DNA of 64,000 bases from NCBI GenBank assembly GCA_041613315.1, contig JBFJHJ010000006.1, forward strand, positions 1 to 64,000. Reading direction: 5' to 3'. Below, piece after piece: positions 1,640 to 56,460 of the stretch. The stretch comes from Gemmatimonadales bacterium (GTDB lineage: Bacteria; Gemmatimonadota; Gemmatimonadetes; Gemmatimonadales; GWC2-71-9). Numbering within the stretch: position 1 is the stretch's first letter; each line of letters begins with the position of its first letter. A program made the position numbers and the translations under genes. Under the pieces are notes generated by a model. That model was not told where the DNA came from. It saw only the letters and a list, made by a program, of their open reading frames with translations, and made no database searches.

Positions 1640-2940
1640 GGCCGATCCTGCTCGCCGGCGGCCGGGTGATCGACCCGTCGCAGACGCTGGACGCGGTGGC
1701 TGACGTGCTGCTCGTGGACGGCCGGGTCGAGGCCGTGGAGAGCGGGCTCGCGGCGCCGGACGGCGCGGTGGTGCTGGATGTGGCGGGCCGGGTCGTCGCG
1801 CCGGGGCTCGTGGATCTCCACGTGCATCTCCGCGAGCCCGGGCGAGAGGAGGCCGAGACGGTGGCGACGGGCGCGCGCGCGGCGGCGGCGGGCGGCTTCA
1901 CGGCGATCTGTGCGATGCCCAACACCGATCCGGTGACCGACAACCAGGCCGCCGTGGGGTTCCTCGTGAAGCAGGGGGCCGCCGCCCGGTCGGCCCGCGT
2001 CCATCCGATTGGCGCCGTGTCCTTGGGGCTGCGTGGCGAGCAGCTCGCCGAGTTCGGCGAGCTCGTCGCCGCCGGCGCGGTCGCCGTCAGCGACGACGGG
2101 CGACCGGTCGAGACGAGCCACCTCATGCGCACGGCGCTCGAGTACGCCCGCACGTTCGAGATCCCCGTCGCGGACCACTGTGAAGACTTGATGCTCGCCG
2201 CCGGCGGCGTCATGCACGAGGGCGTGGTCTCGACGCGGCTTGGCCTGAAGGGCATCCCGGCCGCCGCCGAGGAGATCATGGTGGCGCGCGACGTGCTCCT
2301 CGCCGAGTTGACCGGCGGGCACGTGCACCTGTGCCACATCTCCACCCGGGGATCCGTGGACCTGATCCGCCGCGGTAAAGCGAGCGGCGTGCGCGTCACG
2401 GCGGAGGCGACCCCTCACCACTTCACGCTCACCGACGAGGCGTGCGAGACGTACGACACGAACGCCAAGATGAACCCCCCGCTCCGGGAGGCGGCCGACA
2501 TCGAGGCGATCCGGGAGGCGCTGGCCGACGGTACGATTGACGCCATCGCCACGGACCACGCGCCGCACCACTACGAAGCGAAGGAGCGCGAGTTTGACGA
2601 TGCGCCGTTCGGGGTCGTAGGCCTGGAGACGGCGCTGAGTCTGGGCCTCACGGAGCTGGTACGGCCTGGGCACCTGACGCTCCCGACGCTCATCGCCCGT
2701 CTGAGCTCCGATCCCGCCCGCGTCTTCCGCCTGTCGGGCGGTACGCTGCGCCGCGGTGCCCCCGCGGACGTCGTGGTGTTCGACGCTGAGGCCAATTGGG
2801 TCGTCACCCCCGAACGGTTCCTGTCCAAGAGCCGCAACACGCCGTTCGCTGGGCGTACGCTTACCGGGAAAGTGGAACGCACGATCGTTGGTGGCGTTAC
2901 CGTGTTCCAGGCCCCGGTGTCCGCAGGGGCGGGGGTTTGA
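1636..2940 (+). CDS. pyrC: dihydroorotase (class I)
   Basis: [32 protein letters not shown] overlap with pyrB. Confidence 0.95.
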
Positions 2941-3043
2941 CGGAAACCCCGCGCCCTGCAGTATCTTGCAGGGTAGTGCGTTCGGCTGTCGGTGGTCCGT
3001 GTCCGGACGGCCGAGCGCCTGCAGCCTCCGGTGCGGAGATGTG

Positions 3044-3949
3044 ATGGCGAAGAAGGGACCGTCCAAGCCGACCGACGCGGTTCAGCGATTGCTCGCCGAG
3101 AAGCACCAGATCGAGCAATGGCTGGAGCGGCTGAACAGTGCGGGCGACACGACGCCTGGGCACGTACGGGAAAAGGTGCAATCGGACTACCGCAAGCGCC
3201 TCGTCGAGATCGTGGGCGAGCTCCAGGAGCACCGGGACAATCTCTCCGCGACGCTCGACGAAGCACGCCGGCGCCAGGACGATCTCGCCCGCAAGGAGGA
3301 GGCGGCCTCGGAGCGGTTGTCCGAGGCGGAATTGCGCCACACCGTGGGCGAGTACGATGAGAAGAAGTGGGCGGCACTCAAAGCAGACATCCTGGAGTCG
3401 CTGGTGAAGGTGCGGGAAGGGTTGAAAGAGGCCAATGCGCAGATCGCCGCGCTCGAGGAGATCGCGGCCGTCGTGGATGATCAGCCGGCGGGGCTGACGC
3501 CGACGGGCGAGCCCGACGAGGAGGTCAATCTGGGCGGGATGCAGGTCTCCCTGGACGACGTCGACGCGGGGACGGCGGCCGCGAAGGCCGCGCGGGAGGC
3601 GACGCCGGAGCGCCCGCGCCCCAAGCCGAAGCAGACGGACGCCTTCGACGAGCTGGCCTTTCTCAAGTCGGTCACCGCAGGCGACGCCACTGTTCGGCCT
3701 CGGCCCAGCGGCGGGGTGGCGCGGCCGCGCCAGGACACCAAGCCCCCCGTCAAGGAGCCGCCCCGGCCGCCCCGGCGAAGCGGGGCGTCAGAAATCGGAG
3801 CGGAAGGGGTGGAGGCGTTGCTGCAAGAGCCGACGCAGCCCTCGAAGGGGACGGCGGGCAAGACCCTCAAGTGCGCCGAGTGCGGCGCCAACAATCTCCC
3901 TACGGAATGGTACTGCGAGCGCTGTGGTGCTGAGCTCGCGGCACTCTAG
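3044..3949 (+). CDS. hypothetical protein: N-terminal coiled coil, Pro-rich linker, C-terminal zinc ribbon
   Basis: Heptad-rich N half; terminal CAECGANNLPTEWYCERCG (CxxC-x10-CxxC); GGAG upstream of ATG 3044. Confidence 0.8.
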   Translation: MAKKGPSKPTDAVQRLLAEKHQIEQWLERLNSAGDTTPGHVREKVQSDYRKRLVEIVGELQEHRDNLSATLDEARRRQDDLARKEEAASERLSEAELRHTVGEYDEKKWAALKADILESLVKVREGLKEANAQIAALEEIAAVVDDQPAGLTPTGEPDEEVNLGGMQVSLDDVDAGTAAAKAAREATPERPRPKPKQTDAFDELAFLKSVTAGDATVRPRPSGGVARPRQDTKPPVKEPPRPPRRSGASEIGAEGVEALLQEPTQPSKGTAGKTLKCAECGANNLPTEWYCERCGAELAAL

Positions 3950-3958
3950 CGTCCCGAC

Positions 3959-4213
3959 TCAGGCCATCGAGGCGACGACCTTCGCGAGGCGCTGCTTGTG
4001 GCGGGCAACGGTGTTGCGCGCGATCAGGCCCTTGCGCGCGCCGCGGTCGAGCAACCGCTCGGCCACGCGGAAGGCATTCGCGGCCTCGTCGTGGCTGGTG
4101 GCGGTGCGCACCTGCTTGATCGCGGTGCGCATCGCTGAGCGCGCCGTGCGATTCTGGATGCGCTGCCGCTGGGACTGCCGCATCCGTTTCTTGGCCGATC
4201 GAATGTTGGGCAC
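3959..4213 (-). CDS. rpsT: 30S ribosomal protein S20
   Basis: MPNIRSAKKRMRQS...RN...SAMRTAIK...RNTVARHKQRL; GTG start with GGAGGAG SD. Confidence 0.97.
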   Translation of the reverse strand: MPNIRSAKKRMRQSQRQRIQNRTARSAMRTAIKQVRTATSHDEAANAFRVAERLLDRGARKGLIARNTVARHKQRLAKVVASMA

Positions 4214-4269
4214 GGTCTCTCCTCCACGTGGGGCCCGCGGGCCCCGAACCCCGGCAACAATCGGCGGGA

Positions 4270-4298
4270 AGTTTATCGCGCAAGTGTCGGTGAGTCAA
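4270..4298 (-). promoter_or_regulatory. sigma70-type promoter for rpsT
   Basis: Minus strand TTGACT(4298-4293)-17 nt-TAAACT(4275-4270). Confidence 0.7.
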
Positions 4299-4311
4299 GG
4301 CGCTACAGCTT

Positions 4312-4340
4312 TTGACACCGCGTAAGGTCACCGTTACCTT
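4312..4340 (+). promoter_or_regulatory. sigma70-type promoter for the scpA super-operon, back-to-back with the rpsT promoter
   Basis: TTGACA(4312-4317)-17 nt-TACCTT(4335-4340). Confidence 0.7.
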
Positions 4341-4374
4341 TCTGCCGCACCTGACCTGGCGATCGCCACGCGAC

Positions 4375-4559
4375 GTGCTCGACTTCCCGCTCGCCCCCCC
4401 TGCGCCCGGCGGTCCGACGGCGGCGCACGACGACGCGCTTCGTCACGGCGCCCGCCGCGGGGCGACCTCACCGCCCAGCAGCCGGTGCGGCGCGTGCTGA
4501 GCCTGCCCGAGCCGATCGCGGCGCGGCGGGGCCGACGGCTGCCGCGATCCCGCGGATGA
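4375..4559 (+). pseudogene. decayed 5' fragment of a site-2 protease (M50 family) gene
   Basis: GTG 4375 frame reads VLDFPLAPPAPGGPTAAHDDALRHGARR; after a 1-nt shift near 4460 it reads GDLTAQQPVRRVLSLPEPI, collinear with the S2P pattern AHExAHGxxAxxxGDxTAxxxGRLTLNPxxHI. Confidence 0.55.
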
Positions 4560-5290
4560 CGGCGCCCGCCCTCACCGCTTCGGACCAGCCCTTCATCGTG
4601 CGGCTGGACGCGTTCTCCGGACCCCTCGATCTCCTGTTGCATCTGATCCGAGAGCAGGAGATCGACATCGCGGACATCCCGATCGCCCGCATTGCGGACC
4701 AGTTCCTGGCGAGTATTCACGACTTGGGGCTGAACGAGGCAGCTGACTACCTCGACATGGCTGCCTATCTCCTGCGGATCAAGATCCAAATGTTGCTGCC
4801 GCGGCCGTTCGACGACGAGGAGTGGGAGGATCCCCGCGCCGAGCTGGTGCGCCGGCTCCTGGAATACCAGCAGGTTCTTGAGGTTGCCGACTGGATCGGG
4901 GACCAGGTGGGCCAGCGGTCGGATCGGTTTCCGCGCGGCTGGGTGCCCGCGCCGGCGCCCGCCCCGCCCGCGCCCGTTACGGTCGAGCTGGACGATCTGC
5001 TCACCGCCGTGGAACGCGTGCGCGAGGCGATGCCGCAACCCGTGCTGCATCGGGTCGTGGCTCGGCCCCTCGACGTCGAGGGCGCGACGCGCCGCATCGT
5101 GGCGATGCTGGCGTCACGCGAGCACCTCGACTTCGGGGAGTTGCTCGGCGCGGCGCCGACCGTGGCAGACATTCTGTCGGTGCTGCTCGCGTTGCTGGAA
5201 TTGGCCCGGATGGGCCGGCTGCGGCTCGTGCAGCGGAACGCCTTCGGCTCGGTTGCCGTTCGCCGTGAATCGACTGACGCCGCTGCTTGA
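4556..5290 (+). CDS. scpA: segregation and condensation protein A (kleisin)
   Basis: FSGPLDLLLHLI...DIPIARIADQF...MAAYLLRIK...DPRAELVRRLLEY; LALLELAR. Confidence 0.95.
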   Translation: MTAPALTASDQPFIVRLDAFSGPLDLLLHLIREQEIDIADIPIARIADQFLASIHDLGLNEAADYLDMAAYLLRIKIQMLLPRPFDDEEWEDPRAELVRRLLEYQQVLEVADWIGDQVGQRSDRFPRGWVPAPAPAPPAPVTVELDDLLTAVERVREAMPQPVLHRVVARPLDVEGATRRIVAMLASREHLDFGELLGAAPTVADILSVLLALLELARMGRLRLVQRNAFGSVAVRRESTDAAA

Positions 5291-6532: not shown

Positions 6533-6535
6533 TTC

Positions 6536-8170: not shown

Positions 8171-8204
8171 GAGCCGAGCCACGCGCCCCCGGCGGTGAGG
8201 AGCG

Positions 8205-19946: not shown

Positions 19947-21067
19947 TGCGGATCGGGATCACCTGCTATCCGACGTATGGCGGCTCGGGCGCGGTCGCGA
20001 CCGAGCTCGGCCTCGACCTCGCCCGGCGGGGGCACGAAGCCCATCTGATCTCCTACGCGTCACCGTTCCGCCTGCGCGGCTTCAACGAACGAGTCTACTT
20101 CCACGAGGTCGACCTCAGCGGCACGTACCCGCTCCTGGAGTATTTCCCCTACTCGCTCGCCCTCGCCGTCAAGCAGCACGAGGTGGCGATCCGTGAGCAG
20201 CTCGACATCCTGCACGTCCATTACGCGGTACCCCATGCTACGGCGGCGTTCTTAGCGAAGCAGATGCTGGCTCCGGAGCGGGACCTGAAGGTCGTGACGA
20301 CGCTTCACGGGACCGACATCACCCTCGTCGGTCAAGAGAGCTCGTTCTTCACGGTGACCAAGTTCTCGATCGAGCGGTCGGACGCCGTCACCGCGGTCTC
20401 CACGTTCCTGCGGGACGAGACGTACCACGCCTTCGGGTGCGACGGGTGTGCGATCGAAGTGATCCCGAATTTCGTCAACCCCGCCGAGTACTTCCCGACG
20501 GACGATGCCGCGTGCCGCACGTCGCTGGCGCCCGCCGAGACGAAGGTGCTGATGCACATCTCGAACTTTCGGCCGGTGAAGCGCGTGACGGACGTCGTCC
20601 GTGTCTTCGCGGAGGTGCGGCGGCGGATGCCCGCGGTGCTCGTCATGGTGGGTGACGGGCCGGAACGGCCCGAGGCAGAGGCCGCAGGGCAGCGCCTCGG
20701 CGTCGCCGGCGACGTGCGGTTTCTCGGTAAGGTGAACGCGGTGGCGGATCTCTTGCGGGCCGCCGACCTGTTCCTGCTCCCCAGTGCGTCGGAATCGTTC
20801 GGCCTCAGTGCCCTCGAGGCGATGGCCTGCGGTGTGCCGGTCGTCGGCACCAACGTGGGCGGCCTTCCGGAAGTGGTGACGGACGGCGAAAATGGGGCGC
20901 TTCTTCCCCTGGGTGACGTGGAGGCGATGGCGGCGCGGGCGCTCGCCCTCCTCGAGCCCGCCGCGTGGCGGCGGGCCCGAGCGGCGGCCGTGACGCGAGC
21001 CCAGACGTTTGCATCGGACCGCGTCGTGCCGATGTACGAGGCGTTGTATCGCCGATTGCTGGGGTGA
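19946..21067 (+). CDS. bshA: N-acetyl-alpha-D-glucosaminyl L-malate synthase (GT4)
   Basis: MRIGITCYPTYGGSGAVATELG, HVHYAVPHA, TTLHGTDITLVG, HISNFRPVKRV, ESFGLSALEAMACGVP. Confidence 0.92.
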   Translation: MRIGITCYPTYGGSGAVATELGLDLARRGHEAHLISYASPFRLRGFNERVYFHEVDLSGTYPLLEYFPYSLALAVKQHEVAIREQLDILHVHYAVPHATAAFLAKQMLAPERDLKVVTTLHGTDITLVGQESSFFTVTKFSIERSDAVTAVSTFLRDETYHAFGCDGCAIEVIPNFVNPAEYFPTDDAACRTSLAPAETKVLMHISNFRPVKRVTDVVRVFAEVRRRMPAVLVMVGDGPERPEAEAAGQRLGVAGDVRFLGKVNAVADLLRAADLFLLPSASESFGLSALEAMACGVPVVGTNVGGLPEVVTDGENGALLPLGDVEAMAARALALLEPAAWRRARAAAVTRAQTFASDRVVPMYEALYRRLLG

Positions 21068-21115
21068 TGGAGCGCCCCATCGTCCAACGCCCGTGAGCGG
21101 ATCCTCCGCGCCGTG

Positions 21116-24421: not shown

Positions 24422-24943
24422 ATGGCGCGCGTGGCGCTGCAGTGGAGCACGGCGTTCGTCTTGGCGATGCTGCTGATCGGCGCCGGGGGCGCCGTGCACC
24501 CGGCGTCGCTCGTCGCACAGAATGAGGCGGACGCCGTGATGGCACCCGTCAAGGGGCTGTTCGACGCGATGCGGACGCGGGACAGCGTCGCCGCGCGCGC
24601 GGTCTTTCACCCGGAGGCGCGGCTCGTCGGGACCGGCGTGCGTGACGGCCGGTCGGTGGTGCAGGTGAATGCGATCGACGGGTTCATCGCCGCGATCGGC
24701 CGCGACCGCGAGGTCTGGGACGAGCGGATCTGGGATTGGGAAGTACGGATCGCCGACAACCTCGCGACGGTCTGGACGAAGTACGACTTCCTCCGCGCCG
24801 GCGCGTTCAGTCACTGCGGGGTGGACGCGTTTCAGTTGGTCCGGACGGACGACGGGTGGAAGATCGTCCAGGTCGCGGATACGCGGCGACGGGAGGGGTG
24901 CGAGGCGCCGTCGGGAACCGTCTATCCCCGTGGCGGCCGTTGA
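24422..24943 (+). CDS. secreted NTF2/SnoaL-like (lumazine-binding-like) protein
   Basis: Signal peptide; LFDAMR, ERIWD.EVRIADNLATVWTKY, HCGVDAFQLV..DDGWKIV; GGAGG SD. Confidence 0.8.
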   Translation: MARVALQWSTAFVLAMLLIGAGGAVHPASLVAQNEADAVMAPVKGLFDAMRTRDSVAARAVFHPEARLVGTGVRDGRSVVQVNAIDGFIAAIGRDREVWDERIWDWEVRIADNLATVWTKYDFLRAGAFSHCGVDAFQLVRTDDGWKIVQVADTRRREGCEAPSGTVYPRGGR

Positions 24944-24968
24944 ACTGCCCGACGGCCCGCGCTAACTT
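24940..24968 (+). promoter_or_regulatory. sigma70-type promoter
   Basis: TTGAAC(24940-45)-17 nt-TAACTT(24963-68). Confidence 0.55.
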
Positions 24969-25007
24969 GTGGCGCCTGGCCCCCACTCTGACCCGGGAGA
25001 GCCCTGG

Positions 25008-25628
25008 ATGACTTCCGCCGCGCAACCGGTTGACGACGAACGCAACGACGTCCGTACGATGGTAGGCGGCGGGGTGAAGCTCGGGATCATAACGGCCATC
25101 GGCGTCACCGTGTTCGCCCTCGTGTCGCGTCCGATGCCGGCGGGGACGACGGAGACCGTCGTTCAGTCGCTGCTCGTCGTGGTGGGAGGCGCGCTCTTCA
25201 GCTATCTCCCTGCGTACTGGGTGCGGCCGCGCAGCACGGACGGGATCGCCTGGACCGCGCTGTTGGGCCTGCTCGGTGCCGTCGCGTTCACCGTGGTCGA
25301 TACGGCGGTCCTCCGCCCCTTGAGCCTGTATCACTGGACGTGGGACGAGATCGGCGGCGGGAGCGGCTTCTGGTACATCCCCGTATGGTGGATGGGGGCG
25401 GCGGTGTTGGCGTGGCTGGGTGCCTGGGTCACCGCGATCACGACGCGCGCCGGGCGAGTAGCTGAGTTGCCCGCGACGGCCGCCCAGACGTGCGGCGGGG
25501 CGATCGCGTTGTTCGCGATCCTCACGCTCGCCGGGATCGGGCCGTTTCACACGGCCATGATGGCGCTGGCGTTCGCCCTGGCGCTGATGCTCCACGTCCC
25601 GATCGCCGCGGCACTCCAGCGGCGGTGA
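25008..25628 (+). CDS. hypothetical integral membrane protein
   Basis: About 6 hydrophobic segments; aromatic-rich loop YHWTWDEIGGGSGFWYIPVWW. Confidence 0.75.
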   Translation: MTSAAQPVDDERNDVRTMVGGGVKLGIITAIGVTVFALVSRPMPAGTTETVVQSLLVVVGGALFSYLPAYWVRPRSTDGIAWTALLGLLGAVAFTVVDTAVLRPLSLYHWTWDEIGGGSGFWYIPVWWMGAAVLAWLGAWVTAITTRAGRVAELPATAAQTCGGAIALFAILTLAGIGPFHTAMMALAFALALMLHVPIAAALQRR

Positions 25629-25861
25629 ACCGCCGGACGGCGCGCCGGCTCGCCCGGGTCGCCGGTTGGCTGCTCACACCTCTCGTGGTGTGGGCAGCTT
25701 CGTTTTTGGGAGGATGGGCCGCGGCCGTGCTGTGGGGTGAAGCCGTGGGCGGCACCGTGGGGCTGCTCTGGCTCGCCGGCGGCGCCGTCGTGGGGGGACT
25801 GATCGGCGCCGCCGCCTGGCTCGCCGTGATGTGGCATGCGAGGGGACCGGGCGACCTGTAA
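25625..25861 (+). CDS. small two-TM membrane protein
   Basis: GTGA overlap with the previous gene; basic N-terminus then two Gly/Ala-rich helices. Confidence 0.55.
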   Translation: MNRRTARRLARVAGWLLTPLVVWAASFLGGWAAAVLWGEAVGGTVGLLWLAGGAVVGGLIGAAAWLAVMWHARGPGDL

Positions 25862-34854: not shown

Positions 34855-35613
34855 TCAGCCCACGAGGAGTCTCACCACGGCCGCCACGCCGACCGCCACG
34901 AGCACCCACAGCCCGCCGACGATGGCGAGCGGTCCGGTGACGGTTTTCCCGCCGGTCAGCACGCGATTCCCCGCCGCCAGGAGATACACTTTCCACGCCC
35001 CGAAGAACGTGAGCTGTTCGCCGACCCTCGCCAGGAACGGGGACTCGTCGGCGTCGAACAGAAACCCCAGCGACAGTGTCAGCTGCTCGAGTTTCAGCGC
35101 GGCGACGACGGCGACGACGAGCACAGCGCCGAGGAGCTGCGGCATCTGCGCATGCGCGACGACGGCAAGCTCGTCTCGGAAGGAGACGGTTCGGCTCGCC
35201 GCGGCGCCGAACAGCAGTTGTAGCACAGCCGCGACGATGACGAGCGACGCGAGGCCCAAGGCCGCGCCGCCCCCGAAGATGAGGAGCCGGTTGGAGAGGC
35301 TCCCCGCCCGCTCGAGCGCCCGCTCGCGCGCTTCGGGTGGCACCCGGTCCGGATTCTGTTGCTGCACGCTCTGGAGCTGCGCTTCCACCTGACTGCGAAG
35401 GGTGGTCGTCGGCGTCCCGAAGGCGACGACCCCGGACACGGCCACGAGCAGTACGACCGGGAATAGCCACCGCGGCCTGGCCGCCAGCGACCGAAAGACC
35501 CGGGTGGGCTCGTCGAGCACCCGCACGGCGTGCCACCAGTCACCTTTCGTCTGGTCACCGGCCGGGGAGGGGGGAATAGTGGCCACTGGGAGACCTCCTT
35601 CCGAGTGCGTCAT
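34855..35613 (-). CDS. Yip1 family membrane protein
   Basis: VLDEPTRVFRSLAARPRWLFP N-terminal signature, about 5 TMs; alternative GTG start at 35586 with GGAGG SD. Confidence 0.75.
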   Translation of the reverse strand: MTHSEGGLPVATIPPSPAGDQTKGDWWHAVRVLDEPTRVFRSLAARPRWLFPVVLLVAVSGVVAFGTPTTTLRSQVEAQLQSVQQQNPDRVPPEARERALERAGSLSNRLLIFGGGAALGLASLVIVAAVLQLLFGAAASRTVSFRDELAVVAHAQMPQLLGAVLVVAVVAALKLEQLTLSLGFLFDADESPFLARVGEQLTFFGAWKVYLLAAGNRVLTGGKTVTGPLAIVGGLWVLVAVGVAAVVRLLVG

Positions 35614-35719
35614 CCGGTGTCGCTTGTCCGCGACGCGCCGGTCCGCCCCCGTGACGGTTCGGAAGACGGGAAACGGACGGCGCGTCGTCGCCGGCGCCCA
35701 AGAATGCGCCGTCCCTGGC

Positions 35720-36619
35720 TCAACATGCCACCCCCTCCGCGTACGGCCCTGGCCGATCGCGCCCGACGATCTGCACCTGCGTGGCGACCCATTCGAGCTC
35801 CGCGCCCTCCCGGCCGACCACGGCGTAGCGCCGCTCGCCGTCCACGAGGATCCCGATGGCCCGCGGCTGCAAGGTCACCAGCGCGTCGAGGCAGCCGTTG
35901 GGGGGGCGCACCTCCGCGCGCAGCACGCGCTGCGGGCGCGCCTCCAGCGACCGGTACACCGCGTACCCGTGGTCGACCAGCGGCGCGCGAAAGGTGCCGG
36001 TCCCGACTTCGGTGGGCGTGCCAATGAGCGCCAGCGCGCCGGCGACGTGGCGCTCCACGATCCCGATGCGGAGCCCTCGCCACGTTCGGTTGGAAACGCT
36101 GAACGTGACGGCGTACACGGTGTCGTTGTACGCGTCGATCGCGAGATCGGCGCCGTACGTGTAGCGGGCGAGTTGCGGCGCGCTGGAGTGGGGCTGCGGC
36201 GCCTGCGTTCCCAGGACGGCGAACACCACCGCGATCGGCGCGCCGGGGGCCACGGGGAGCGTCCGCGCGTCATCCGTGGGCACCGGCGGCTGTGGCGCCG
36301 CCACGTATCGCGGGCCCGACAGGAGAACCGCCGCGCCCGCCGCCGCGATGGCGCCGCTGGCCGCCAGCAAGAACGCCCACCGGCGCCACCCCTGGCGAGG
36401 CGCTTCCCGCGGCGCGCGCCCCGATGGCCGGGAGGGGCCGCGCCCCGTGAGGAGCGCCTCGCCGCGCCCTCCCGGCCGGCCCGTCTGTGTTGCCCGCGCC
36501 AGCTCCTGCATCACCTGATCGTGATCGACCCCCTGCCGCTCACGGTGGCAGGCCGGGCACCCGCGCGGGTTCTCGTCGTTGTACGGGATCTTGTGGATCG
36601 AGCAGCGGACGACGGTCAT
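35720..36619 (-). CDS. hypothetical bitopic membrane protein with N-terminal zinc-finger-like motif
   Basis: CSIH-x11-CPAC, basic linker, single TM, beta-rich C domain. Confidence 0.75.
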   Translation of the reverse strand: MTVVRCSIHKIPYNDENPRGCPACHRERQGVDHDQVMQELARATQTGRPGGRGEALLTGRGPSRPSGRAPREAPRQGWRRWAFLLAASGAIAAAGAAVLLSGPRYVAAPQPPVPTDDARTLPVAPGAPIAVVFAVLGTQAPQPHSSAPQLARYTYGADLAIDAYNDTVYAVTFSVSNRTWRGLRIGIVERHVAGALALIGTPTEVGTGTFRAPLVDHGYAVYRSLEARPQRVLRAEVRPPNGCLDALVTLQPRAIGILVDGERRYAVVGREGAELEWVATQVQIVGRDRPGPYAEGVAC

Positions 36620-38989: not shown

Positions 38990-40271
38990 GCGGCGCACCG
39001 TGGAGCTGGATGTCGCCACCGCCGGTGTGGACGCCGGGGGCCGGCCCCTGCGCGTGCCGCTGGGCGTGGCGACCGCGCCGGAGGGCCCCGGCGAGCCGGA
39101 CATCGGCGCGGAGCACATGCTCCTGAACATCGGGCCACAGCATCCCGCGACGCATGGAGTGCTCCGGCTGGTCGTGGAGCTGGACGGCGAAATCGTACGC
39201 CGCGTGATCCCCCACGTGGGGTACCTGCACTCGGGGTTCGAGAAGCTCGGAGAGTACCGGCACTACAATCAGATCATCCCCCTCACGGACCGGACCGATT
39301 ACCTGTCGCCCATGGCGAACAACGTGGCGCTCGCGCTGGCGGCCGAGCGGCTCATGGGCATCGAGATCACGGAGCGCTGCAAGGTGCTCCGGGTGATCGC
39401 GTGCGAGATGAGTCGGGTGATCTCGCACGTCGTCTGGTTGGGGACCACCGCGATCGATATCGGCGCGTTCACGCCCTTCCTCTGGACCTTCCAGCAGCGC
39501 GAGCTCGTGTACGACCTCCAGGAGGCGTGGACGGGCGCGCGGCTCACCACCAGCCTGACGCGGGTCGGCGGGCTCATGGCGGACATTCCCCAAGGGTTCG
39601 AGGACCAGCTCCGCGCCTTCTGCCGCGGCTTCCCGAAGGTCCTGGACGAGGTGGACCGGCTCCTCACCCGCAACGGCATCTGGTGCTCGCGGACCCAAGG
39701 ATTGGGTGTGATGAGTGCGGCGGAGGCGATCAACTACGGTCTCTCGGGGCCCATGCTGCGGGCCAGTGGGGTGGCGTACGATGTGCGGAAAGATCGCCCC
39801 TATCTCGACTACGAGACCTACGACTTTGACGTGCCCGTCGGCGAACACGGCGACGTCTACGACCGGTACCTGGTCCGCCTGGAGGAGATGCGGCAGTCCG
39901 TGCGGCTCCTGGAGCAGGCGCTGGACCGCCTCCCCGACGGGCCGATCAACGTGGACGACCCGCGGGTCATCCTGCCGCCCAAGACGGCGGCGATGACGGA
40001 CATGGAAGCTATGATCTTCCACTTCAAGCAGGTGATGGACGGGGTTCGGGCGCCGGTGGGCGAGGTCTACCTGCCGATCGAGAACGGCAAAGGCGAGCTG
40101 GGGACCTACTTCGTGTCCGACGGCACGGCGAAGCCGGTCCGGTGGCGCATTCGGCCCCCGTCATTCATCAATCTCGCGGCGCTCCCCAAAATGGCGGAAG
40201 GGCACCTCCTGTCCGACCTGATCGCGGTCAATGCCAGCGTGGACATCGTGATGGGCGAGGTGGATCGGTGA
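38982..40271 (+). CDS. nuoD: NADH-quinone oxidoreductase subunit D
   Basis: NIGPQHPATHGVLRL, GYLHSGFEK, DIVMGEVDR. Confidence 0.96.
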   Translation: MAERRTVELDVATAGVDAGGRPLRVPLGVATAPEGPGEPDIGAEHMLLNIGPQHPATHGVLRLVVELDGEIVRRVIPHVGYLHSGFEKLGEYRHYNQIIPLTDRTDYLSPMANNVALALAAERLMGIEITERCKVLRVIACEMSRVISHVVWLGTTAIDIGAFTPFLWTFQQRELVYDLQEAWTGARLTTSLTRVGGLMADIPQGFEDQLRAFCRGFPKVLDEVDRLLTRNGIWCSRTQGLGVMSAAEAINYGLSGPMLRASGVAYDVRKDRPYLDYETYDFDVPVGEHGDVYDRYLVRLEEMRQSVRLLEQALDRLPDGPINVDDPRVILPPKTAAMTDMEAMIFHFKQVMDGVRAPVGEVYLPIENGKGELGTYFVSDGTAKPVRWRIRPPSFINLAALPKMAEGHLLSDLIAVNASVDIVMGEVDR

Positions 40272-40288
40272 GCGGTCGGCACCCGGCG

Positions 40289-40388
40289 TGTTCCGTGATC
40301 CGTCGTCCGGTTTCCGACGTTTCGCGACCCGCCCCGCTGCGGGTGTCCGCCCGGGGCCACGGAGCCACGACGAATGATGGATGACGCT
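40289..40388. repeat. degenerate heptamer/octamer tandem repeats in opposite orientations
   Basis: TGTTCCG TGATCCG TCGTCCG GTTTCCG (40289-40316), then CGGGGCCA CGGAGCCA CGACGAA TGATGGA. Confidence 0.45.
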
Positions 40389-40397
40389 TCAGCGGCG

Positions 40398-40892
40398 ATG
40401 ACCGAGACCACGACGTACGAGCCCGTCTTCACGGGCGCGCAACGGAAACAGCTGGAGGCGATCCTCCCGCGCTACCCCACGAAGCAGGCCGCGCTGCTGC
40501 CGGCCCTGTGGATGGTACAGGAGACGCACGGCTGGGTGTCGGACAGCGCCATGGCGGAGGTCGCGGAGGTCCTGGACTTGGCGCCCGCTTACGTCAAGGG
40601 CGTGGTGACCTTCTACACGATGTACCACCAGCACCCGGTGGGGCGCTATTTCATTCAGATATGCACGACGACGCCGTGCAACCTGTGTGGCGCGGAAGAC
40701 GTCGTGCACGCCTTCCTCACGCACACGGGCTGCGGGGAGCTCGGCGCCACGTCGACCGACGGCGGGTACACGGTGATCGAGGTCGAGTGCCTGGGAGCGT
40801 GCGGGTTTGCCACACCGGTGCTGATCAACGACGACTTCATCGAGGGCGTGACGCCGGAAACCGTTCCGGAGCTGCTGCGGAGCTACCGATGA
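40398..40892 (+). CDS. nuoE: NADH-quinone oxidoreductase subunit E
   Basis: ALLPALW, VVTFYTMY, CTTTPC..CG, ECLGAC (2Fe-2S); start 40374/40377/40398. Confidence 0.94.
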   Translation: MTETTTYEPVFTGAQRKQLEAILPRYPTKQAALLPALWMVQETHGWVSDSAMAEVAEVLDLAPAYVKGVVTFYTMYHQHPVGRYFIQICTTTPCNLCGAEDVVHAFLTHTGCGELGATSTDGGYTVIEVECLGACGFATPVLINDDFIEGVTPETVPELLRSYR

Positions 40893-40984
40893 CGCCGCCG
40901 CCGGCGCCGGCGTGACCCGGCCCGTGATCAGACGCCGCAGGGGTGCGGCGCGTCCGCCGCGTCATGGCGGAGCGGCGAGGTAAC

Positions 40985-42292
40985 ATGGGTTACCCGCACC
41001 AGCCGCACTCCAAAGAGACCGTGGTGCTCTCCGAGTACTTCGGCGACCCCGACGCCCGCACCTACGACGGGTGGATCAAGCGGGGTGGCTACCGGGCGCT
41101 CGAGCGGGCGTTGGGAATGGCGCCGGCCGCCATCATCGAAGAGGTCAAGCGATCCGGGCTTCGCGGCCGGGGCGGCGCGGGCTTCCCGACCGGTGTCAAA
41201 TGGGGGTTCATGCCGCGGGAGAAGAAGAAGCCCCACTACCTCTGCTGCAACGCGGACGAGTCGGAGCCCGGGACGTTCAAGGACCGCGAGATCATGCGGT
41301 GGACGCCGCACGCGCTCATCGAGGGGTGCGCGATCGCCCAGTACGCGATCCAGGCCGAGATCAACTACATCTACATCCGCGGCGAGTTCACCGAGCCGCT
41401 CCGCATCATGTCGCAGGCGCTGGACGAGGCGTACGCCAAGGGTGTGCTCGGTGCCAACGCGATGGGCACGGGCGTGCGGCTCGACATGTATGTGCACCGC
41501 GGTGCCGGGGCCTACATCTGCGGGGAGGAGACCGCCCTCATGAACTCGATCGAGGGCCGCCGCGGCAATCCCCGGGTGAAACCGCCCTTTCCGGCGGCGG
41601 TCGGTGTGTTCGGTATGCCGACCACGATCAACAACGTCGAGACGCTGGCGGCGGTGCCGCCCATTCTCAACCGCGGTGGCGAGTGGTATAAAGGCCTGAG
41701 CCGCGCCAGCCCGAAGAGCACCGGCACCAAGCTCTACAGCGTGTGCGGACACGTGCAGCGACCCGGCAACTACGAGCTCGAGATGGGCTTCCCCCTGGGC
41801 GAGCTGATCCACGAGTTGTGCGGCGGCGTCCCCGCCGGCCGCACGCTCAAGGCCTGCATCCCCGGCGGCTCCTCGGTGCCGATTCTGACCCGCGAGGAGA
41901 CCGAGGCCTGCGTCCTCGACTACGAGGGCGTCGTGGAGGCCGGCTCGATGCTGGGCTCCGGGGGTGTGATCGTGTTGGACGACAGCGCCGACATGGTCTA
42001 CCAGATCATGCGGCTCGCCAAGTTCTACGCCCATGAGTCGTGCGCCCAGTGCACGCAGTGTCGGGAGGGCACGGCGTGGACCGTGCGGATCCTCCAGAGG
42101 ATTCTGGCCGGGGAAGGCGAGATGCGGGACTTGGACGTGCTGCTGGACCTGGCCGAGCAGATGACGGGGAAGACGATCTGCGTGTTGAGCGACTCGTGTG
42201 CCGCGCCGGTCGTGAGCGGCATCAAGAAATTCCGCGGGGAGTTCGAAGCGTACATCTCGGGCGCGCGGCGCCCGGCACGAGCGGTGGCATAG
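40985..42292 (+). CDS. nuoF: NADH-quinone oxidoreductase subunit F
   Basis: GLRGRGGAGFPTGVKW, NADESEPGTFKDR, GAGAYICGEETAL, ESCAQCTQCREG. Confidence 0.96.
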   Translation: MGYPHQPHSKETVVLSEYFGDPDARTYDGWIKRGGYRALERALGMAPAAIIEEVKRSGLRGRGGAGFPTGVKWGFMPREKKKPHYLCCNADESEPGTFKDREIMRWTPHALIEGCAIAQYAIQAEINYIYIRGEFTEPLRIMSQALDEAYAKGVLGANAMGTGVRLDMYVHRGAGAYICGEETALMNSIEGRRGNPRVKPPFPAAVGVFGMPTTINNVETLAAVPPILNRGGEWYKGLSRASPKSTGTKLYSVCGHVQRPGNYELEMGFPLGELIHELCGGVPAGRTLKACIPGGSSVPILTREETEACVLDYEGVVEAGSMLGSGGVIVLDDSADMVYQIMRLAKFYAHESCAQCTQCREGTAWTVRILQRILAGEGEMRDLDVLLDLAEQMTGKTICVLSDSCAAPVVSGIKKFRGEFEAYISGARRPARAVA

Positions 42293-42297
42293 CCGCG

Positions 42298-45595: not shown

Positions 45596-45597
45596 CC

Positions 45598-48412: not shown

Positions 48413-48413
48413 G

Positions 48414-51472: not shown

Positions 51473-51503
51473 GCGCGGGCCGCGCTCCCGCATCGGGTCA
51501 TCC

Positions 51504-52877
51504 GTGAATATTCCGGCCGTGATCTTCCGGCAGTACGACATTCGTGGTGTGGTCGGGCAGGATCTCACCTCCGAGACGGCGCACGCCGTGGGGCGCGCGC
51601 TGGCGACGCTCGCACGGCGCTGGATCGGCCGTGACCCGCGGCTCGCCGTCGGTCGTGATAACCGGCCGTCGGGCGAGCTGCTCGCTCGGGCGACCCGAGA
51701 CGGGATCAGCCGGGCTGGCGGCGTCGCGGTGGACGTCGGGCAAGTGCCGACGCCCGCTCTGTATCTCGCCCTGCACGAGCTCGACGTCGACGGGGGCGTG
51801 CAGGTGACGGGCTCGCACAACCCGCCGGAGTTCAATGGGTTCAAGATGGTCGCCGCCGGGCGCACGCTGCACGGCGAGGACATTCAGACGCTGCGGCAGC
51901 TCATCGTTGACGATGCCACCGATACCGGCGAGGGCGGGCTCGAGGCCGACGACTCGCTCCTGCGGCGCTACGCCGATGCGGTGGTCTCACGCAACAGCCC
52001 GCTCGCCCGACCCGTCAAAGTCGCCGTGGACTGCGGCAACGGGGTGACCAGCCTGGTCGCGGAGACGGTGCTCACCCGCGTGGGTGCCGACGTGATTCCG
52101 CTGTTCTGTGACTCCGACGGGCGGTTTCCCAACCACCATCCCGATCCCACCGTACCGGAGAACCTCGCCGACCTCCAGGCGGCCGTGCGCCGCACCGGCG
52201 CGGAGCTGGGCATCGCGTTCGACGGCGACGGGGATCGGATCGGCGCCGTCGATGAAACCGGGAACGTCGTGTTCGGCGATCAACTCCTCGTGCTGTTCGG
52301 CCGCGATCTCGTGGCCCGGATGGGTCCCGGCCATCCAGTGATCTTCGACGTGAAGTGTTCGAACGTGCTGGTCGAGGCGCTCGAGCGCGCCGGGCTCGAG
52401 CCCGTGATCTGGAAGACCGGCCACTCGCTCATCAAAGCCAAGATGCACGAGCTGAAGGCGCCGCTGGCGGGCGAGATGAGCGGCCACGTGTTCTTCGGTG
52501 GCGACTATTACGGCTTCGACGATGCGCTCTTCGCGGCGGCCCGGCTGGTGGCGTACGTCGCGGTGCAGGGTGGCCCGTTGTCGACGCTGCTCGCCGATCT
52601 TCCCAAGACGTTCGCGACCCCCGAGCTCCGCGTCGACTGCCCGGAAGAACGCAAATTCGCGATCGTCGAAGACGCCGCGCAGTATTTTGGCGAGCGCTAC
52701 GAGACCCTCACCCTCGACGGCGTCCGGATCTCGTTTCCCCACGGATGGGGACTGCTACGGGCGTCCAACACGCAGCCCGTCCTCGTACTGCGGTTCGAGG
52801 CGACCTCGGCGGACGCGTTGACCGCGTACCGCGGCGAGGTCGAGAACTGGCTGCGCGCTCAGGGTATTGCAGTGTAG
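51504..52877 (+). CDS. phosphomannomutase/phosphoglucomutase (AlgC-like)
   Basis: FRQYDIRG, TGSHNP, FDGDGDRIG, GEMSGH, RASNTQP. Confidence 0.95.
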   Translation: MNIPAVIFRQYDIRGVVGQDLTSETAHAVGRALATLARRWIGRDPRLAVGRDNRPSGELLARATRDGISRAGGVAVDVGQVPTPALYLALHELDVDGGVQVTGSHNPPEFNGFKMVAAGRTLHGEDIQTLRQLIVDDATDTGEGGLEADDSLLRRYADAVVSRNSPLARPVKVAVDCGNGVTSLVAETVLTRVGADVIPLFCDSDGRFPNHHPDPTVPENLADLQAAVRRTGAELGIAFDGDGDRIGAVDETGNVVFGDQLLVLFGRDLVARMGPGHPVIFDVKCSNVLVEALERAGLEPVIWKTGHSLIKAKMHELKAPLAGEMSGHVFFGGDYYGFDDALFAAARLVAYVAVQGGPLSTLLADLPKTFATPELRVDCPEERKFAIVEDAAQYFGERYETLTLDGVRISFPHGWGLLRASNTQPVLVLRFEATSADALTAYRGEVENWLRAQGIAV

Positions 52878-52880
52878 GAC

Positions 52881-55454
52881 ATGGGTCCACGCCGACGATG
52901 GGTGCAGGCGGCCATCGGGGTCGCGCTGGTAGGACTGGTCGGCGGCCGCTGGCTCGCGGTGTCGACCGCGGGTCGGCTGTGGGCGGAGGCGATGGGCGTG
53001 CCCGGCACCCACGGGGACATCGCGCGCCTCCGGGTGTTGCTCCTCGCCACCGCCATGAGCGCCGCGCTGCTCTGGTGCCTCGGCAATCTCTACCTGGTCT
53101 ACCGATCCATCGGCTCGGTGCACGTGCCCCGCCGCCTCGGCAACATCGAGATTCTCGAGGTGGTCCCACGCCGCTACCTCCTGCTCATCGCCCTCGGCAT
53201 CGGGACGGCTCTCGCCGTCCTCCTGAGCCATGGCGCCGGCGACTGGTGGCGCGTCCGCGCCCTCGCCGGCCTTTCCACCAGTGTGGGGATCCGCGACCCG
53301 GTGCTCGGCGAAGATCTCGCGTACTACCTGTTTCGCCTGCCCTGGCACCGGACGCTGCACGGGTTCGCGACCTTGCTGAGCGGCGTGCTCCTGGCGGTCA
53401 CCGGCGTGCTCTACGCCGCGCTCGGGGCGATTCGCTGGGCGGAACGTCGGCTGCAGGTGACCGAGCTGGCGCGCGCCCACTTGGGCGTGCTGCTCGCCGC
53501 CTTCGCGCTCGCGCTCGCCTGGGGCTATCGCCTCGAGCCCACCGAGTACGTCGCCGGGGTGCACAGTGTCCCCGCCGACGTCGTCTTGACCGGCGTGCGG
53601 ATCCCGGCCGCGCGGCTCCTGAGCGGCCTTGCGCTGGTCGCGGCCGGCGCCTCGGTGCTGTGGATCTGGGCGGCGCGCATGACCGTGGTCGTGGTGTCGT
53701 GGGTCATCCTGGGGGCCGCGTCAGTGGCGGGTCACTATGTCGTGCCCGTGTTCGCCACCGCCACGCGGCGCCCGGAGGAGCTGCCCCTCTCGCAGGTCGT
53801 CAAGCGATCGGACGAGTTTGCACGACTCGCTTACGGCAGGGTGCCGGCGGCACAGCTCGTGCGGACCTCCGTGCTGACCGATCCGGACCGCCTCGTGGGC
53901 TATGCGGCGGCTCTCCGCCGGGGGCCGGTGTGGGACGCCTTTGCGCTCACCGTGTCTCTCGATCGCGTCGCCGCCCCCCGGCCGGCGACCGCATTCCACG
54001 AGGCGACACTCGCCGCGTACCCGGACCCGGAGGGGCGCCAGGTGCCGGTCTACCTGGCGGCGCGACGGGTTGATCTGACGGCGCTCCGGTCGGCGGCGCC
54101 CGCGCCGACCTGGGAGGCGGTGCATGTCGGTCCGCACGCCGTAGCACGCGGGGCCGTTGCGGTCCTGGCCCACCGTGCGGCTGCCGACGGCCTGCCGCTG
54201 TTCATCGCCGATCTGTCACGTCCCGAGGTCGCCGGGGAAGCGCCGGCGGACCTTTCGCTCGCCATCCCCGAGATGTTGACGGCGCCCGGCATCGCCGATT
54301 TCGCGGTGCGCCCCCCGGCGGAGGGTGGGGCGCGCGGCGTCCGGGCGGGCGGCTTCTGGCGGCGCCTCGCCTTAGCTTGGGCGCTCCAGAGCCCGCAGCT
54401 CATCGGATCGGAGGCGGTGGGCGACAGCGCGGTGCTGATCTGGGAGCGCGACGTGGCGTCCCGCCTGCACCAATTCGCCCCGTTTGCCGACTTCGGGGCG
54501 CCGTACGCCGTCGTCGTGGAAACACGTCTCTACTGGCTCGCCAGCGGCTACGTGGCGGCCGACGCCTTCCCGCTCGCGCCCGAAGCGCGGTGGCAGGGAG
54601 AGGCCGTGCGCTATCTCCGGGCGGGATACCTGGGCGTCGTTGACGCGGCCACCGGTGCGACGGCGGTCTACCTGGTCGCCGACCCGGATCCGCTCAGCGC
54701 GGCGTGGGCGTCGTTGGCGCCCGACGTTGTCCAGCCGGCCGACGCGTTCCCGGAGGCGCTGGCCGGGCACATCCGCTATCCGGCGGAAGCATTTGCCGTT
54801 CAGGCGACGCTCGCACGCGCCACGCAGCTGGAGGCTGCGCCGGAGGGTGGTGGGCTGCAGCGGCGCGGTGCCCTCGGTGTTGGGGCGGTCCCCTACTGGT
54901 GGTTTGGCCCGGTGCCCGGGGACTCAGCCAACCGGGTGCGGCTGATGGCGGCCGTCGAAGGAGGGGTACCCTCCGAACTCCGCGGTATGGTCGTCGGCAC
55001 GGCGCGCGGCACCGAGCGTGAGCTCCGCCTATTCCGGTTCGATCCGGCCGCGGAGCTCCCTGTCCCGTCGGCCGCGGCGCGCGCGTTCGCCGAGCTGCGA
55101 CCGGACACGGCGGGGATCCGCGGCGCGGTCCGCCTCGTCCCGTTCGACGACGGTGTGCTCGCGATCCAGACGGGGTACGCGGGCGCGCGGGATTCGCGCG
55201 ACCCCCCGCGGATCGCCGACATCGCGGTGCAGTGGGGCGGGCTGACCGCCGTCGGGCCGACGCTCGCCGCCGCCCTGCGCCGCGCGGGGACGGAACAACA
55301 TGCGGCGGTGGTCTCGGCCGAGACGTGGCGCGAGGCGGGACGCTGGTTCGAGCGCATGGACGCGGCGCGGCGCGCCGGCGATTGGACCGCGTTTGGGCGC
55401 GCGTACGACGCCCTGCGGCGACTGCTGGCGGGACCACCCGACAGCCGCCCGTGA
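52881..55454 (+). CDS. UPF0182 family membrane protein (divergent)
   Basis: 7-TM-like N half with DPVLGEDLAYYLFRLP; HIRYP; C-terminal GDWTAFGRAY. Confidence 0.8.
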   Translation: MGPRRRWVQAAIGVALVGLVGGRWLAVSTAGRLWAEAMGVPGTHGDIARLRVLLLATAMSAALLWCLGNLYLVYRSIGSVHVPRRLGNIEILEVVPRRYLLLIALGIGTALAVLLSHGAGDWWRVRALAGLSTSVGIRDPVLGEDLAYYLFRLPWHRTLHGFATLLSGVLLAVTGVLYAALGAIRWAERRLQVTELARAHLGVLLAAFALALAWGYRLEPTEYVAGVHSVPADVVLTGVRIPAARLLSGLALVAAGASVLWIWAARMTVVVVSWVILGAASVAGHYVVPVFATATRRPEELPLSQVVKRSDEFARLAYGRVPAAQLVRTSVLTDPDRLVGYAAALRRGPVWDAFALTVSLDRVAAPRPATAFHEATLAAYPDPEGRQVPVYLAARRVDLTALRSAAPAPTWEAVHVGPHAVARGAVAVLAHRAAADGLPLFIADLSRPEVAGEAPADLSLAIPEMLTAPGIADFAVRPPAEGGARGVRAGGFWRRLALAWALQSPQLIGSEAVGDSAVLIWERDVASRLHQFAPFADFGAPYAVVVETRLYWLASGYVAADAFPLAPEARWQGEAVRYLRAGYLGVVDAATGATAVYLVADPDPLSAAWASLAPDVVQPADAFPEALAGHIRYPAEAFAVQATLARATQLEAAPEGGGLQRRGALGVGAVPYWWFGPVPGDSANRVRLMAAVEGGVPSELRGMVVGTARGTERELRLFRFDPAAELPVPSAAARAFAELRPDTAGIRGAVRLVPFDDGVLAIQTGYAGARDSRDPPRIADIAVQWGGLTAVGPTLAAALRRAGTEQHAAVVSAETWREAGRWFERMDAARRAGDWTAFGRAYDALRRLLAGPPDSRP

Positions 55455-55461
55455 CGTCAAG

Positions 55462-55490
55462 TTGCTGGCGTTTCCGGCACGGACTAGCTT
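55462..55490 (+). promoter_or_regulatory. possible sigma70-type promoter for arcC-sucCD-EIIA/CBS-ndk
   Basis: TTGCTG-17 nt-TAGCTT, 10 nt before GTG 55501. Confidence 0.5.
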
Positions 55491-55500
55491 GCACGCTTCC

Positions 55501-56460
55501 GTGACCACCGCTCCCGGCACCATCGTCGTGGCCCTGGGGGGCAACGCGCTCGCCCCGCCCGGCGAACGGGCGACGATCCACGACCAGTTCCGCCACACCC
55601 GGGCGTCCCTCGCGGCCGTCGTGCCACTGGCCCGCGATGGCTGGAACATCGCTATCGTCCACGGCAACGGCCCGCAGGTGGGTGATGAGCTGGAGCGCAA
55701 CGAGATCGCGTACGAACGGGTCGAACCCCTCCCGCTCGGTGTGCTCGTGGCCGCCACCGCCGGTTGGATCGGCTACATGATCCAGCAGTCGCTCCAGAAT
55801 GCGCTGGAGGACGCCGGCATCAGGCGGGACGTGCTGACGATCATCACGCAGACGGTCGTGGCTCGGGACGATCCCCAGCTGGCGACCGCCACGAAACCCG
55901 TCGGACACGCCCTCGCACCCGACATGGTGGCACTGCTGGAGAGCCGCCGGGTCTCGGTGGGACAGGATGGGGCGGGCCGGTGGCGTCGGCTCGCGCCGAG
56001 CCCCGTGCCACGGGATGTGGTCGAAGCGGACGCGGTGAAACAGCTCGTCGACGAAGGCAAGATCGTGATCACGGCGGGGGGCGGCGGGCCGCCGGTGTAC
56101 TGGGACGGGCAACGACATTGGGAGGGCGTAGATGCCGTGGTGGACAAAGACCGCACGGCGGCTATCGTAGGCCGCCGGCTGGGTGCGGTCGCGCTCCTCA
56201 TTCTCACCGACGTGGATGCGGTGTATCGCGGGTGGGGCACCGAGCAGCGTGAGCCGCTGCGGCGGCTGTCGGTCGGCGCGGCCGAGGCGCTGCTGGCGGG
56301 CGGAACCCTGAGGGCGGGCAGCATGCGCCCCAAGGTGGAGGCGGCGGTGGAATTCGTCCGGAGCGGTGGCCGGCGCGCGGTGATCGCGCATCTGGAACAG
56401 GGCCTCGCCGCATTGCGCGGGGAGACGGGAACGACCGTGACGGAGGAGATGAGCGAGTGA
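55501..56460 (+). CDS. arcC: carbamate kinase
   Basis: VVALGGNAL, HGNGPQVG, TKPVG, AVVDKD, LTDVDAVY, GSMRPKVEAA. Confidence 0.93.
   Translation: MTTAPGTIVVALGGNALAPPGERATIHDQFRHTRASLAAVVPLARDGWNIAIVHGNGPQVGDELERNEIAYERVEPLPLGVLVAATAGWIGYMIQQSLQNALEDAGIRRDVLTIITQTVVARDDPQLATATKPVGHALAPDMVALLESRRVSVGQDGAGRWRRLAPSPVPRDVVEADAVKQLVDEGKIVITAGGGGPPVYWDGQRHWEGVDAVVDKDRTAAIVGRRLGAVALLILTDVDAVYRGWGTEQREPLRRLSVGAAEALLAGGTLRAGSMRPKVEAAVEFVRSGGRRAVIAHLEQGLAALRGETGTTVTEEMSE

Follow-up and report, generated by a model that had tools for sequence, protein, structure and literature searches.

Terminating ribosomes can reinitiate at a nearby start codon, a form of translational coupling described as common between the subunits of complexes and as failing beyond about 20 nucleotides (nt); coupling surveys class gene pairs by annotated distance and treat gaps of more than 20 nt as independent (PMC10666635). 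Here we describe short open reading frames (mini-ORFs) that bridge longer gaps, beginning at the stop codon of one gene and ending at the start codon of the next, which we call relays. They were noticed in a 64,000-nt stretch (hereafter the window; contig JBFJHJ010000006.1, positions 1–64000) of a Gemmatimonadales genome (GCA_041613315.1; 2.63 Mb, 70% GC, 83% complete), and the evidence for them is strongest at the nuoE–nuoF junction in relatives of this genome.

Described termination–reinitiation sites resemble the relays in their ATGA and TGATG overlaps, their distance limit, a Shine–Dalgarno (SD) sequence often lying in the upstream ORF and their place between heteromeric subunits, but concern real gene pairs, with gaps above 20 nt taken as uncoupled, whereas here an unannotated filler ORF bridges both ends (PMC6728339; PMC10666635). 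At each relay hand-off, stop and start overlap or lie within a few bases of one another. Mycobacterial interspersed repetitive units (MIRUs) are described as intergenic repeats with a short ORF coupled at −4 that are thought to spare the downstream gene; they share with the relays a short ORF inside the spacer that overlaps the stop and the start on either side (here 33/38 and 8/9 in the two sets of spacers below), but form one repeat family with a built-in ORF, inserting at start codons (PMC12548453). Here, unrelated spacers (distinct at 85%) occupy one orthologous junction, the ORF arises anew and there is no homologous dispersed family; the hand-off varies (−1, 0, +1), and promoters or gene remnants make up some of the spacers. 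MIRUs duplicate their insertion site, and no such duplication was found here.

Short ORFs are also reported to deliver ribosomes to an overlapping start in uPPE2–PPE2 (PMC11260477) and in engineered bicistronic designs (PMC12548453). As described, delivering upstream ORFs (uORFs) begin with fresh initiation in a leader, whereas relays would begin by reinitiation at a preceding stop within an operon (PMC11260477). Judged by their sequences, relays would work like a MIRU or a delivering uORF but are not MIRUs, as no element is shared. Bicistronic designs place the SD inside the tail of the short ORF, as do the relays here. Intergenic TAACTGA heptamers are likewise 7-nt tandem repeats near start codons that change fast between strains, but they are repeated directly and carry stops in every frame, and translational coupling is not mentioned in the main text of that paper (PMC4679880); the repeats here are inverted hairpins open in one frame. 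The window had no Rfam match to a structured RNA or leader at gathering score. In a literature search limited mostly to openly available papers and to their main texts, neither relay ORFs at orthologous junctions nor coupling in Gemmatimonadota came up as the subject of a paper.

Mini-ORFs bridge nuoE and nuoF in related genomes

The names pyrC, bshA, uppP, nuoD, nuoE, nuoF and rpmF are backed by NCBIfam, and arcC scored below its family cut-off; UPF0182, SnoaL, ZnF, Yip1, sucC, moxR, coaX, clpP/X, mlaE/F, purN and rpsN, and the aldolase-like and UbiA-like genes, were named by sequence reading without a family call. Junctions were compared in syntenic loci of relatives, with downstream starts set by alignment and spacers more than 85% alike removed, against a null that shuffles the spacer and keeps both ends; a null of 1–2-nt deletions breaks real relays by construction, and its P values were left unused. 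Kinship among the relatives makes the loci non-independent, so the P values overstate the significance at all junctions. Of about 30 junction types tried, only nuoE–nuoF, UPF0182–arcC and UPF0182–sucC pass a simple multiple-testing correction.

NuoE and NuoF are neighbouring subunits of the NADH module of complex I. All 140 aligned orthologous junctions (some genomes appear twice) fix the nuoF start, which is ATG 40985 in the window. The two genes adjoin directly in 64 junctions (60 at −1), 23 have other gaps of up to 20 nt and 53 have long spacers. Among the 38 distinct long spacers, 33 are bridged, 31 by one mini-ORF and 2 by two, compared with 6.9 expected and a maximum of 18 in 200,000 null draws. 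The nuoE stop reads ATGA or GTGA in 34/38 long spacers versus 0/78 junctions with gaps of up to 6 nt, and the frames match in 31 of the 33 spacers that have a start and a stop at both ends. The final stop lies within 1 nt of the nuoF start in all 31 single relays (−1, 0 and +1 in 19, 9 and 3, respectively). Six distinct gaps of 7–17 nt are also relays. A fresh set of 20 further genomes of the family, picked by NuoF score before their spacers were seen, held 9 direct, 1 short and 10 long junctions; with one near-copy dropped, 8/9 long spacers were bridged versus 1.9 expected (P = 5 × 10⁻⁶), and the ninth mini-ORF ended 2 nt short. Both sets together gave 41 bridged spacers out of 47. The spacers are otherwise unrelated, which bears out, at this junction, the original prediction that orthologous gaps keep frame while their sequence drifts.

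At junctions with gaps of up to 6 nt, the 24 TGA stops of nuoE are all CTGA, never RTGA (R, A or G), as if one extra residue ahead of the NuoF start were avoided.

A FastTree phylogeny built on 112 NuoF proteins requires 19 changes of the relay label, of which well-supported branches force at least 12, and near neighbours alternate between direct and relay junctions; these changes may be gains or losses. The label is limited to one clade (77/112 rows), so the relay may be ancestral with many losses, which would suit a mini-ORF encoding a genuine small protein that evolves fast, or one belonging to a frameshifted NuoE fusion; some stop suppression at an AUGA overlap is described (PMC11260477). 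We hold this to be very improbable. The mini-ORFs run from 3 to 76 codons, unlike a conserved small protein, and this genome splits the relay into two; the peptides, compared by inspection without formal alignment, are unrelated and often plain translations of 7–8-nt repeats, with no common motif by eye beyond G/E/R tails that the SD explains.

The spacers often consist of hairpins of 7–8-nt repeats with several different units, and many have no repeats; a tandem-unit count of 29/33 allowed mismatches and had no null, and we do not rely on it. Their left ends are RTGA and their right ends mostly TRATG or TAG-ATG. Among gaps of 300–900 nt at this junction, none carries cargo genes between repeat arms. 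Intergenic DNA across the order often holds inverted arrays of such units, which form long hairpins and differ between close relatives (for example, at L037, L048, L214, L219, L233, L250 and L453, and on contig C19 of this genome).

Relays could be a mechanical by-product, with little further selection, either of a stop/start junction duplicated in tandem or of a mobile repeat that resembles a MIRU and carries its own ORF. A few short relays do look duplicated (L045), and one heptamer family recurs in several lineages. However, the two junctions flanking a given spacer do not resemble each other more than cross-pairs do (7.0 versus 6.75 of 20), the repeat units are several and unrelated, many spacers have none, and the same hairpin type stands unbridged at other junctions. 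Moreover, seven-base units shift the frame, so an open frame needs selection. We therefore consider a by-product improbable.

Translation of the mini-ORF might instead be selected because it unfolds the spacer or shields it from Rho, with a different ribosome initiating on the downstream gene from an SD of its own. Folding is often strong in relay spacers of at least 60 nt (15/24 at z < −2, median −4.15), nuoF is preceded by a better SD match in relays than in direct overlaps (median −10.0 kcal/mol, n = 33, versus −6.4 kcal/mol, n = 64), and overlapping uORFs are reported to suppress Rho termination (10.1101/2022.06.01.494293). Yet relays of 3–6 codons cross gaps of 7–17 nt with nothing to unfold, the relay spacers of this genome are no more stably folded than shuffled sequence (z −1.6 to +0.2), and coverage alone does not call for a stop so close to the start, at 1 nt or less. 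No clear difference was seen in how accessible the nuoF start is. We judge this explanation unlikely, although less so than the by-product or the small protein.

UPF0182–arcC and weaker junctions

UPF0182–arcC was found in 36 junctions, one of which was dropped for having no start; 31 are distinct and 20 long. With the arcC start set independently, as the first in-frame start behind a −10-like box, 11/20 long spacers are bridged versus 3.5 expected (P about 3 × 10⁻⁵), and frames match in 11/12; gaps of 40, 43 and 46 nt are each 1 mod 3. The spacers of relatives carry a recurrent motif, TTGC..N..TAG[CG]TT, and eight short cases have a box formed by the TAG stop of the upstream gene, 8 nt ahead of the start. 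In 6/11 relays the arcC start lies 9–10 nt behind a −10-like box. A scan for consensus promoters found none, the window's own motif (Table 1) lying under threshold. A tree of 23 ArcC rows, 5 of them relay rows, needs at least 3 changes.

The original prediction saw the motive for relays in starts that lack an SD. This fails for nuoF, where relays have the stronger SD, and genome-wide, where relay-fed and unbridged starts do not differ in SD (P = 0.55), but it may hold for arcC. Weaker signals came from UPF0182–sucC (8/26 bridged versus 2.3, P = 4 × 10⁻⁴), 6536–moxR (5/11 versus 1.8, P = 0.002) and mlaE–mlaF (3/4 versus 0.8, P = 0.02).

Genome-wide bridging is in small excess

We called genes with a purpose-written caller (periodic Markov model, zero weight on the 3 bases preceding a start), which gave 2353 genes and 1781 co-oriented pairs, 394 of them at −4 and 53 at −1. 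From 307 TGA gaps of 21–300 nt we excluded 35 in which an overlapping start is in frame with the next gene, leaving 272. The strict rule for bridging demands a called start, hand-offs of −4 or −1 and at most two mini-ORFs. All three gap lengths mod 3 can be reached by 0, 1 or 2 hand-offs, so a loose rule can rescue any gap, and the nulls therefore have to permit identical paths.

Under the strict rule 32/272 gaps are bridged, compared with 18.0 under a shuffle null (P = 7 × 10⁻⁵) and a cross-pair null (P = 6 × 10⁻⁴); under the loose rule 49/272 are, against 28.7 and 31.3. The rate is thus 12–18%, or 1.6–1.8 times the nulls, and at least one supposed mini-ORF is a small gene that was missed. 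Excluding the window leaves 29/261 versus 16.6–16.7 (strict) and 42 versus 25.7–29.0 (loose). RTGA and TTGA stops contribute 22/181 bridged gaps versus 14.4 expected, and placebo stops without a usable start show no excess (CTGA, 9/126 versus 9.1; TAG/TAA, 17/238 versus 19.2). Pooled loci of relatives, which are not independent, give a similar ratio (33/224 versus 16.9). Gap length mod 3 is flat genome-wide. For gaps of more than 50 nt, stop- and start-codon context alone showed no clear difference between co-oriented and convergent or divergent genes. Hairpin-repeat gaps elsewhere number nine, too few for a test.

The genome-wide excess, though real, is small, and chance accounts for about 60% of the relays in this genome. 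The original prediction had proposed a pattern running through the whole window; that part falls, given the low genome-wide rate and the many junction types without signal, whereas the excess over nulls that it expected is present and its caveat that some cases are chance was well placed. Three of the seven relays that it listed are probably chance. The least probable reading of all is that chance alone produces every relay, the genome having 70% GC and many TGA stops: chance covers that 60% and the pyrC–hypothetical, ZnF–Yip1 and clpP–clpX mini-ORFs, but it cannot yield 41/47 at nuoE–nuoF or the switch to RTGA, and the placebos have no excess. Chance is refuted for nuoE–nuoF and arcC and stands for most other gaps.

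A proposed mechanism and its weak points

We propose, with a probability of roughly 0.7, that mini-ORFs at a minority of junctions, chiefly nuoE–nuoF and UPF0182–arcC, carry the terminating ribosome across the gap by repeated termination–reinitiation. The starting point would be a gene pair that needs coupled translation, reinitiation being abolished by gaps of about 20 nt (PMC10666635), and a gap opened by repeat hairpins, a promoter or a collapsing gene; the spacer origins named in the original prediction (gene remnant, repeat insertion and promoter) all occur in relatives. Where the downstream N-terminus tolerates junk, the insert would be absorbed in frame, as at nuoD–nuoE and nuoK–nuoL. 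Where both ends are fixed, as by the NuoE C-terminus and the MG[YF]P of NuoF, the survivors would be those with an RTGA stop, an open frame, and a stop and SD at the next start. A ribosome terminating nuoE would restart on RTGA, traverse the spacer, stop at the nuoF start and restart there aided by the SD; at arcC, the relay would allow translation of a near-leaderless gene from the read-through transcript as well. A broader idea, to which we give slightly better than even odds, is that relay ORFs free of any fixed sequence are a selectable operon element: a disposable ORF evolved repeatedly and de novo in any inserted DNA, including hairpins and internal promoters, at junctions that must couple, handing on one ribosome.

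Several observations weigh against the relay mechanism. Five of the 38 long nuoE–nuoF spacers are unbridged, and in 20 genomes of other families or orders none of five long spacers is bridged, so the relay is dispensable or lineage-bound. The SD before relay-fed nuoF is strong (94% at or below −5 kcal/mol), so fresh initiation is possible there. Pairs that are usually coupled often have unbridged long gaps (sucC–sucD 0/10, miaA–bshA 0/6, arcC–sucC 1/6 and nuoF–nuoG 2/12 bridged). Genome-wide there is also a surplus of mini-ORFs whose ends fall elsewhere within 40 nt (62 versus 43), so exact ends are not shown at that scale. Finally, a 2026 preprint reports no consistent enrichment of overlaps among interacting subunits, which weakens a stoichiometry motive (10.64898/2026.09.10.750558).

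Junctions with absorption, direct overlap or no signal

At nuoD–nuoE, 107/129 orthologous junctions have an overlapping start that already shares the frame of nuoE, with 6–30 unconserved residues ahead of the conserved part, so the double relay of this genome looks like a broken extension that was coupled again. In-frame absorption also marks nuoK–nuoL (9/14 versus 2.5 expected). bshA and uppP overlap directly at −4 in 52 of 69 orthologous loci, and only this genome has a gap of 21–300 nt; in 14 (L280–L300) an 810-nt gene for a membrane protein of about 270 aa, UbiA-like by reading, stands between them, coupled at −8 and −4. At bshA–uppP and nuoD–nuoE, where relatives overlap directly, a selected relay is plausible.

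Only one of 15 distinct long pyrC–hypothetical spacers is bridged, that of this genome. A gene of about 220 aa (aldolase-like by reading) occupies the junction in 12/30 loci and is lost in the rest; L324 keeps a collapsed 107-aa remnant with both overlaps. The mini-ORF here is probably chance and possibly a remnant of that gene, but the latter candidate was dropped, as neither a protein nor a DNA profile matched; with a hidden Markov model of the gene, the ORF was absent from the 12 best matches. Inside the gene lies a TATCTT-like box that persists in spacers after its loss (L307, L311, L318, L324 and others), which suggests an internal promoter.

At ZnF–Yip1 a relay appears in 2/14 orthologous junctions including our own, and it is probably chance. 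The gene at 25008 lies behind coaX in relatives, where 5/19 spacers are bridged versus 2.9 (P = 0.14), indistinguishable from chance. The original prediction that spacers are selected to stay translatable therefore divides: it stands at nuoE–nuoF and UPF0182–arcC and less firmly at the sucC, moxR and mlaF junctions, and it is not supported at pyrC–hypothetical, ZnF–Yip1 or the gap before 25008. Selection for a translatable spacer would be junction-specific and not window-wide, and the comparisons support it strongly at nuoE–nuoF and UPF0182–arcC.

A clpP–clpX relay was rejected (1/28 bridged, in this genome only), the gap looking like a promoter; in many relatives (L409–L438) the clpP stop TTGA sits within a −35-like TTGAC box and a TACTA-like box follows some 20 nt later, as if a promoter overlapped the stop codon. 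Across 40 genomes, ribosomal-protein operons were set aside too (2/51 long gaps bridged versus 0.8), one of the two being a missed small gene, rpsN by reading. No signal came from yceD–rpmF (0/29), nuoN–pgm (1/37), fabG–acpP (2/43), birA–coaX (0/12), ndk–yceD (0/55) or the gap between sucD and the gene at 58492 (0/19); selA–purN is kept as a pair in 3/10 loci only. In 29/55 ndk–yceD junctions a −10-like box stands a median of 8 nt before the start, and the downstream gene is likely leaderless.

Relays in the window

All seven relays of the original prediction (Table 1) lie where it had placed them, one of them, SnoaL–membrane protein, leading into the gene at 25008. Four require a start other than that of the longest ORF. 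The starts that we chose are ATG 40398 for nuoE, GTG 55501 for arcC and ATG 35613 for Yip1; the first two resemble the N-termini in relatives. Assembly error was rejected as the source, since further runs of that study yielded contigs that cross six of the seven relays without an indel: nuoD–nuoE–nuoF (39353–41284, one letter different, zero gaps), UPF0182–arcC, bshA–uppP, the gap before 25008 and ZnF–Yip1.

Table 1. Relay mini-ORFs and further features of the window
Feature	Position	Strand	Remark
nuoE–nuoF relay, mini-ORF 1, 8 aa	40889..40915	+	ATG overlaps nuoE stop (ATGA)
nuoE–nuoF relay, mini-ORF 2, 23 aa	40912..40983	+	GTGA hand-off; TAA ends 1 nt before nuoF ATG; SD-like GAGG in tail
UPF0182–arcC relay mini-ORF, 17 aa	55451..55504	+	GTGA at both ends; arcC GTG 55501
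Promoter-like motif TTGCTG-N17-TAGCTT	55462..55490	+	within UPF0182–arcC relay, 10 nt before arcC start; putative promoter
nuoD–nuoE relay, mini-ORF 1, 38 aa	40268..40384	+	from sequence
nuoD–nuoE relay, mini-ORF 2, 6 aa	40381..40401	+	ATGA end on probable nuoE start 40398
bshA–uppP relay, mini-ORF 1	21064..21096	+	10 aa from GTG 21064, or 9 aa from ATG 21067
bshA–uppP relay, mini-ORF 2, 7 aa	21093..21116	+	TGATG on uppP ATG 21116
Mini-ORF before membrane-protein gene at 25008, 23 aa, TTG start	24940..25011	+	gap with TAACTT box
pyrC–hypothetical mini-ORF, 35 aa, TTG start	2937..3044	+	from sequence
ZnF–Yip1 mini-ORF, 37 aa, TTG start	35610..35723	−	ATGA end on ATG 35613
78-aa hydrophobic ORF	25625..25861	+	−4 overlap with upstream stop
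sucD–58492 junction	58459..58492	+	CTG over sucD stop
ndk–yceD gap	59857..59909		
rpmF (L32)	60430..60612	+	TIGR01031

The in-frame overlapping starts GTG 26957 (M20–MBL) and ATG 31208 (CGCP–amidohydrolase) also match their earlier description, although the main start in both cases is likelier a downstream ATG with a GGAG motif (26894 and about 31244), as do the exceptions, the pyrR gap and ndk–yceD, where the ORF ends 12 nt short. The original count of 11 TGA gaps holds for the bridged ones but overlooked the gap between sucD and 58492 (29 nt, CTGA), which no mini-ORF starting with ATG, GTG or TTG bridges. There, a CTG over the sucD stop shares the frame of the next gene, with no stop between them, and is a possible start; relatives overlap at −4 in 12/36. 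With our own gene calls, 7/11 gaps in the window are bridged versus 2.2–3.3 expected; two of these 11 are not true gaps of the window, one containing the missed rpmF and the other lying beyond its end. Having been picked for showing the pattern, the window is a selected hot spot.

The rpmF gene was missed by both the threshold of the ORF list and our caller and is confirmed by TIGR01031. The 78-aa hydrophobic ORF is conserved in 16 loci and has no NCBIfam family. Elsewhere in this genome, a −10-like box stands 6–10 nt before 40/440 divergent starts, hinting at a class of leaderless or near-leaderless mRNAs. The assembly has no match to ribosomal protein L5 and carries tRNA-Sec.

Implications

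If relays act as proposed, many gene pairs with gaps of 20–300 nt that are now held to be uncoupled would in fact be coupled. Relays would return part of the class above 20 nt to the coupled pairs, the excess here being about 14–20 of 272 TGA gaps. In annotation, a relay region can mislead: here it makes nuoF and arcC seem to start upstream of their conserved starts. With more than 40 natural spacer variants, nuoE–nuoF could be used to set reinitiation against scanning or unfolding; a scanning ribosome needs no ORF, so the relays would speak against long-range scanning by post-termination ribosomes. At nuoE–nuoF, the comparative evidence suggests that the act of translation, and not the peptide, is under selection.

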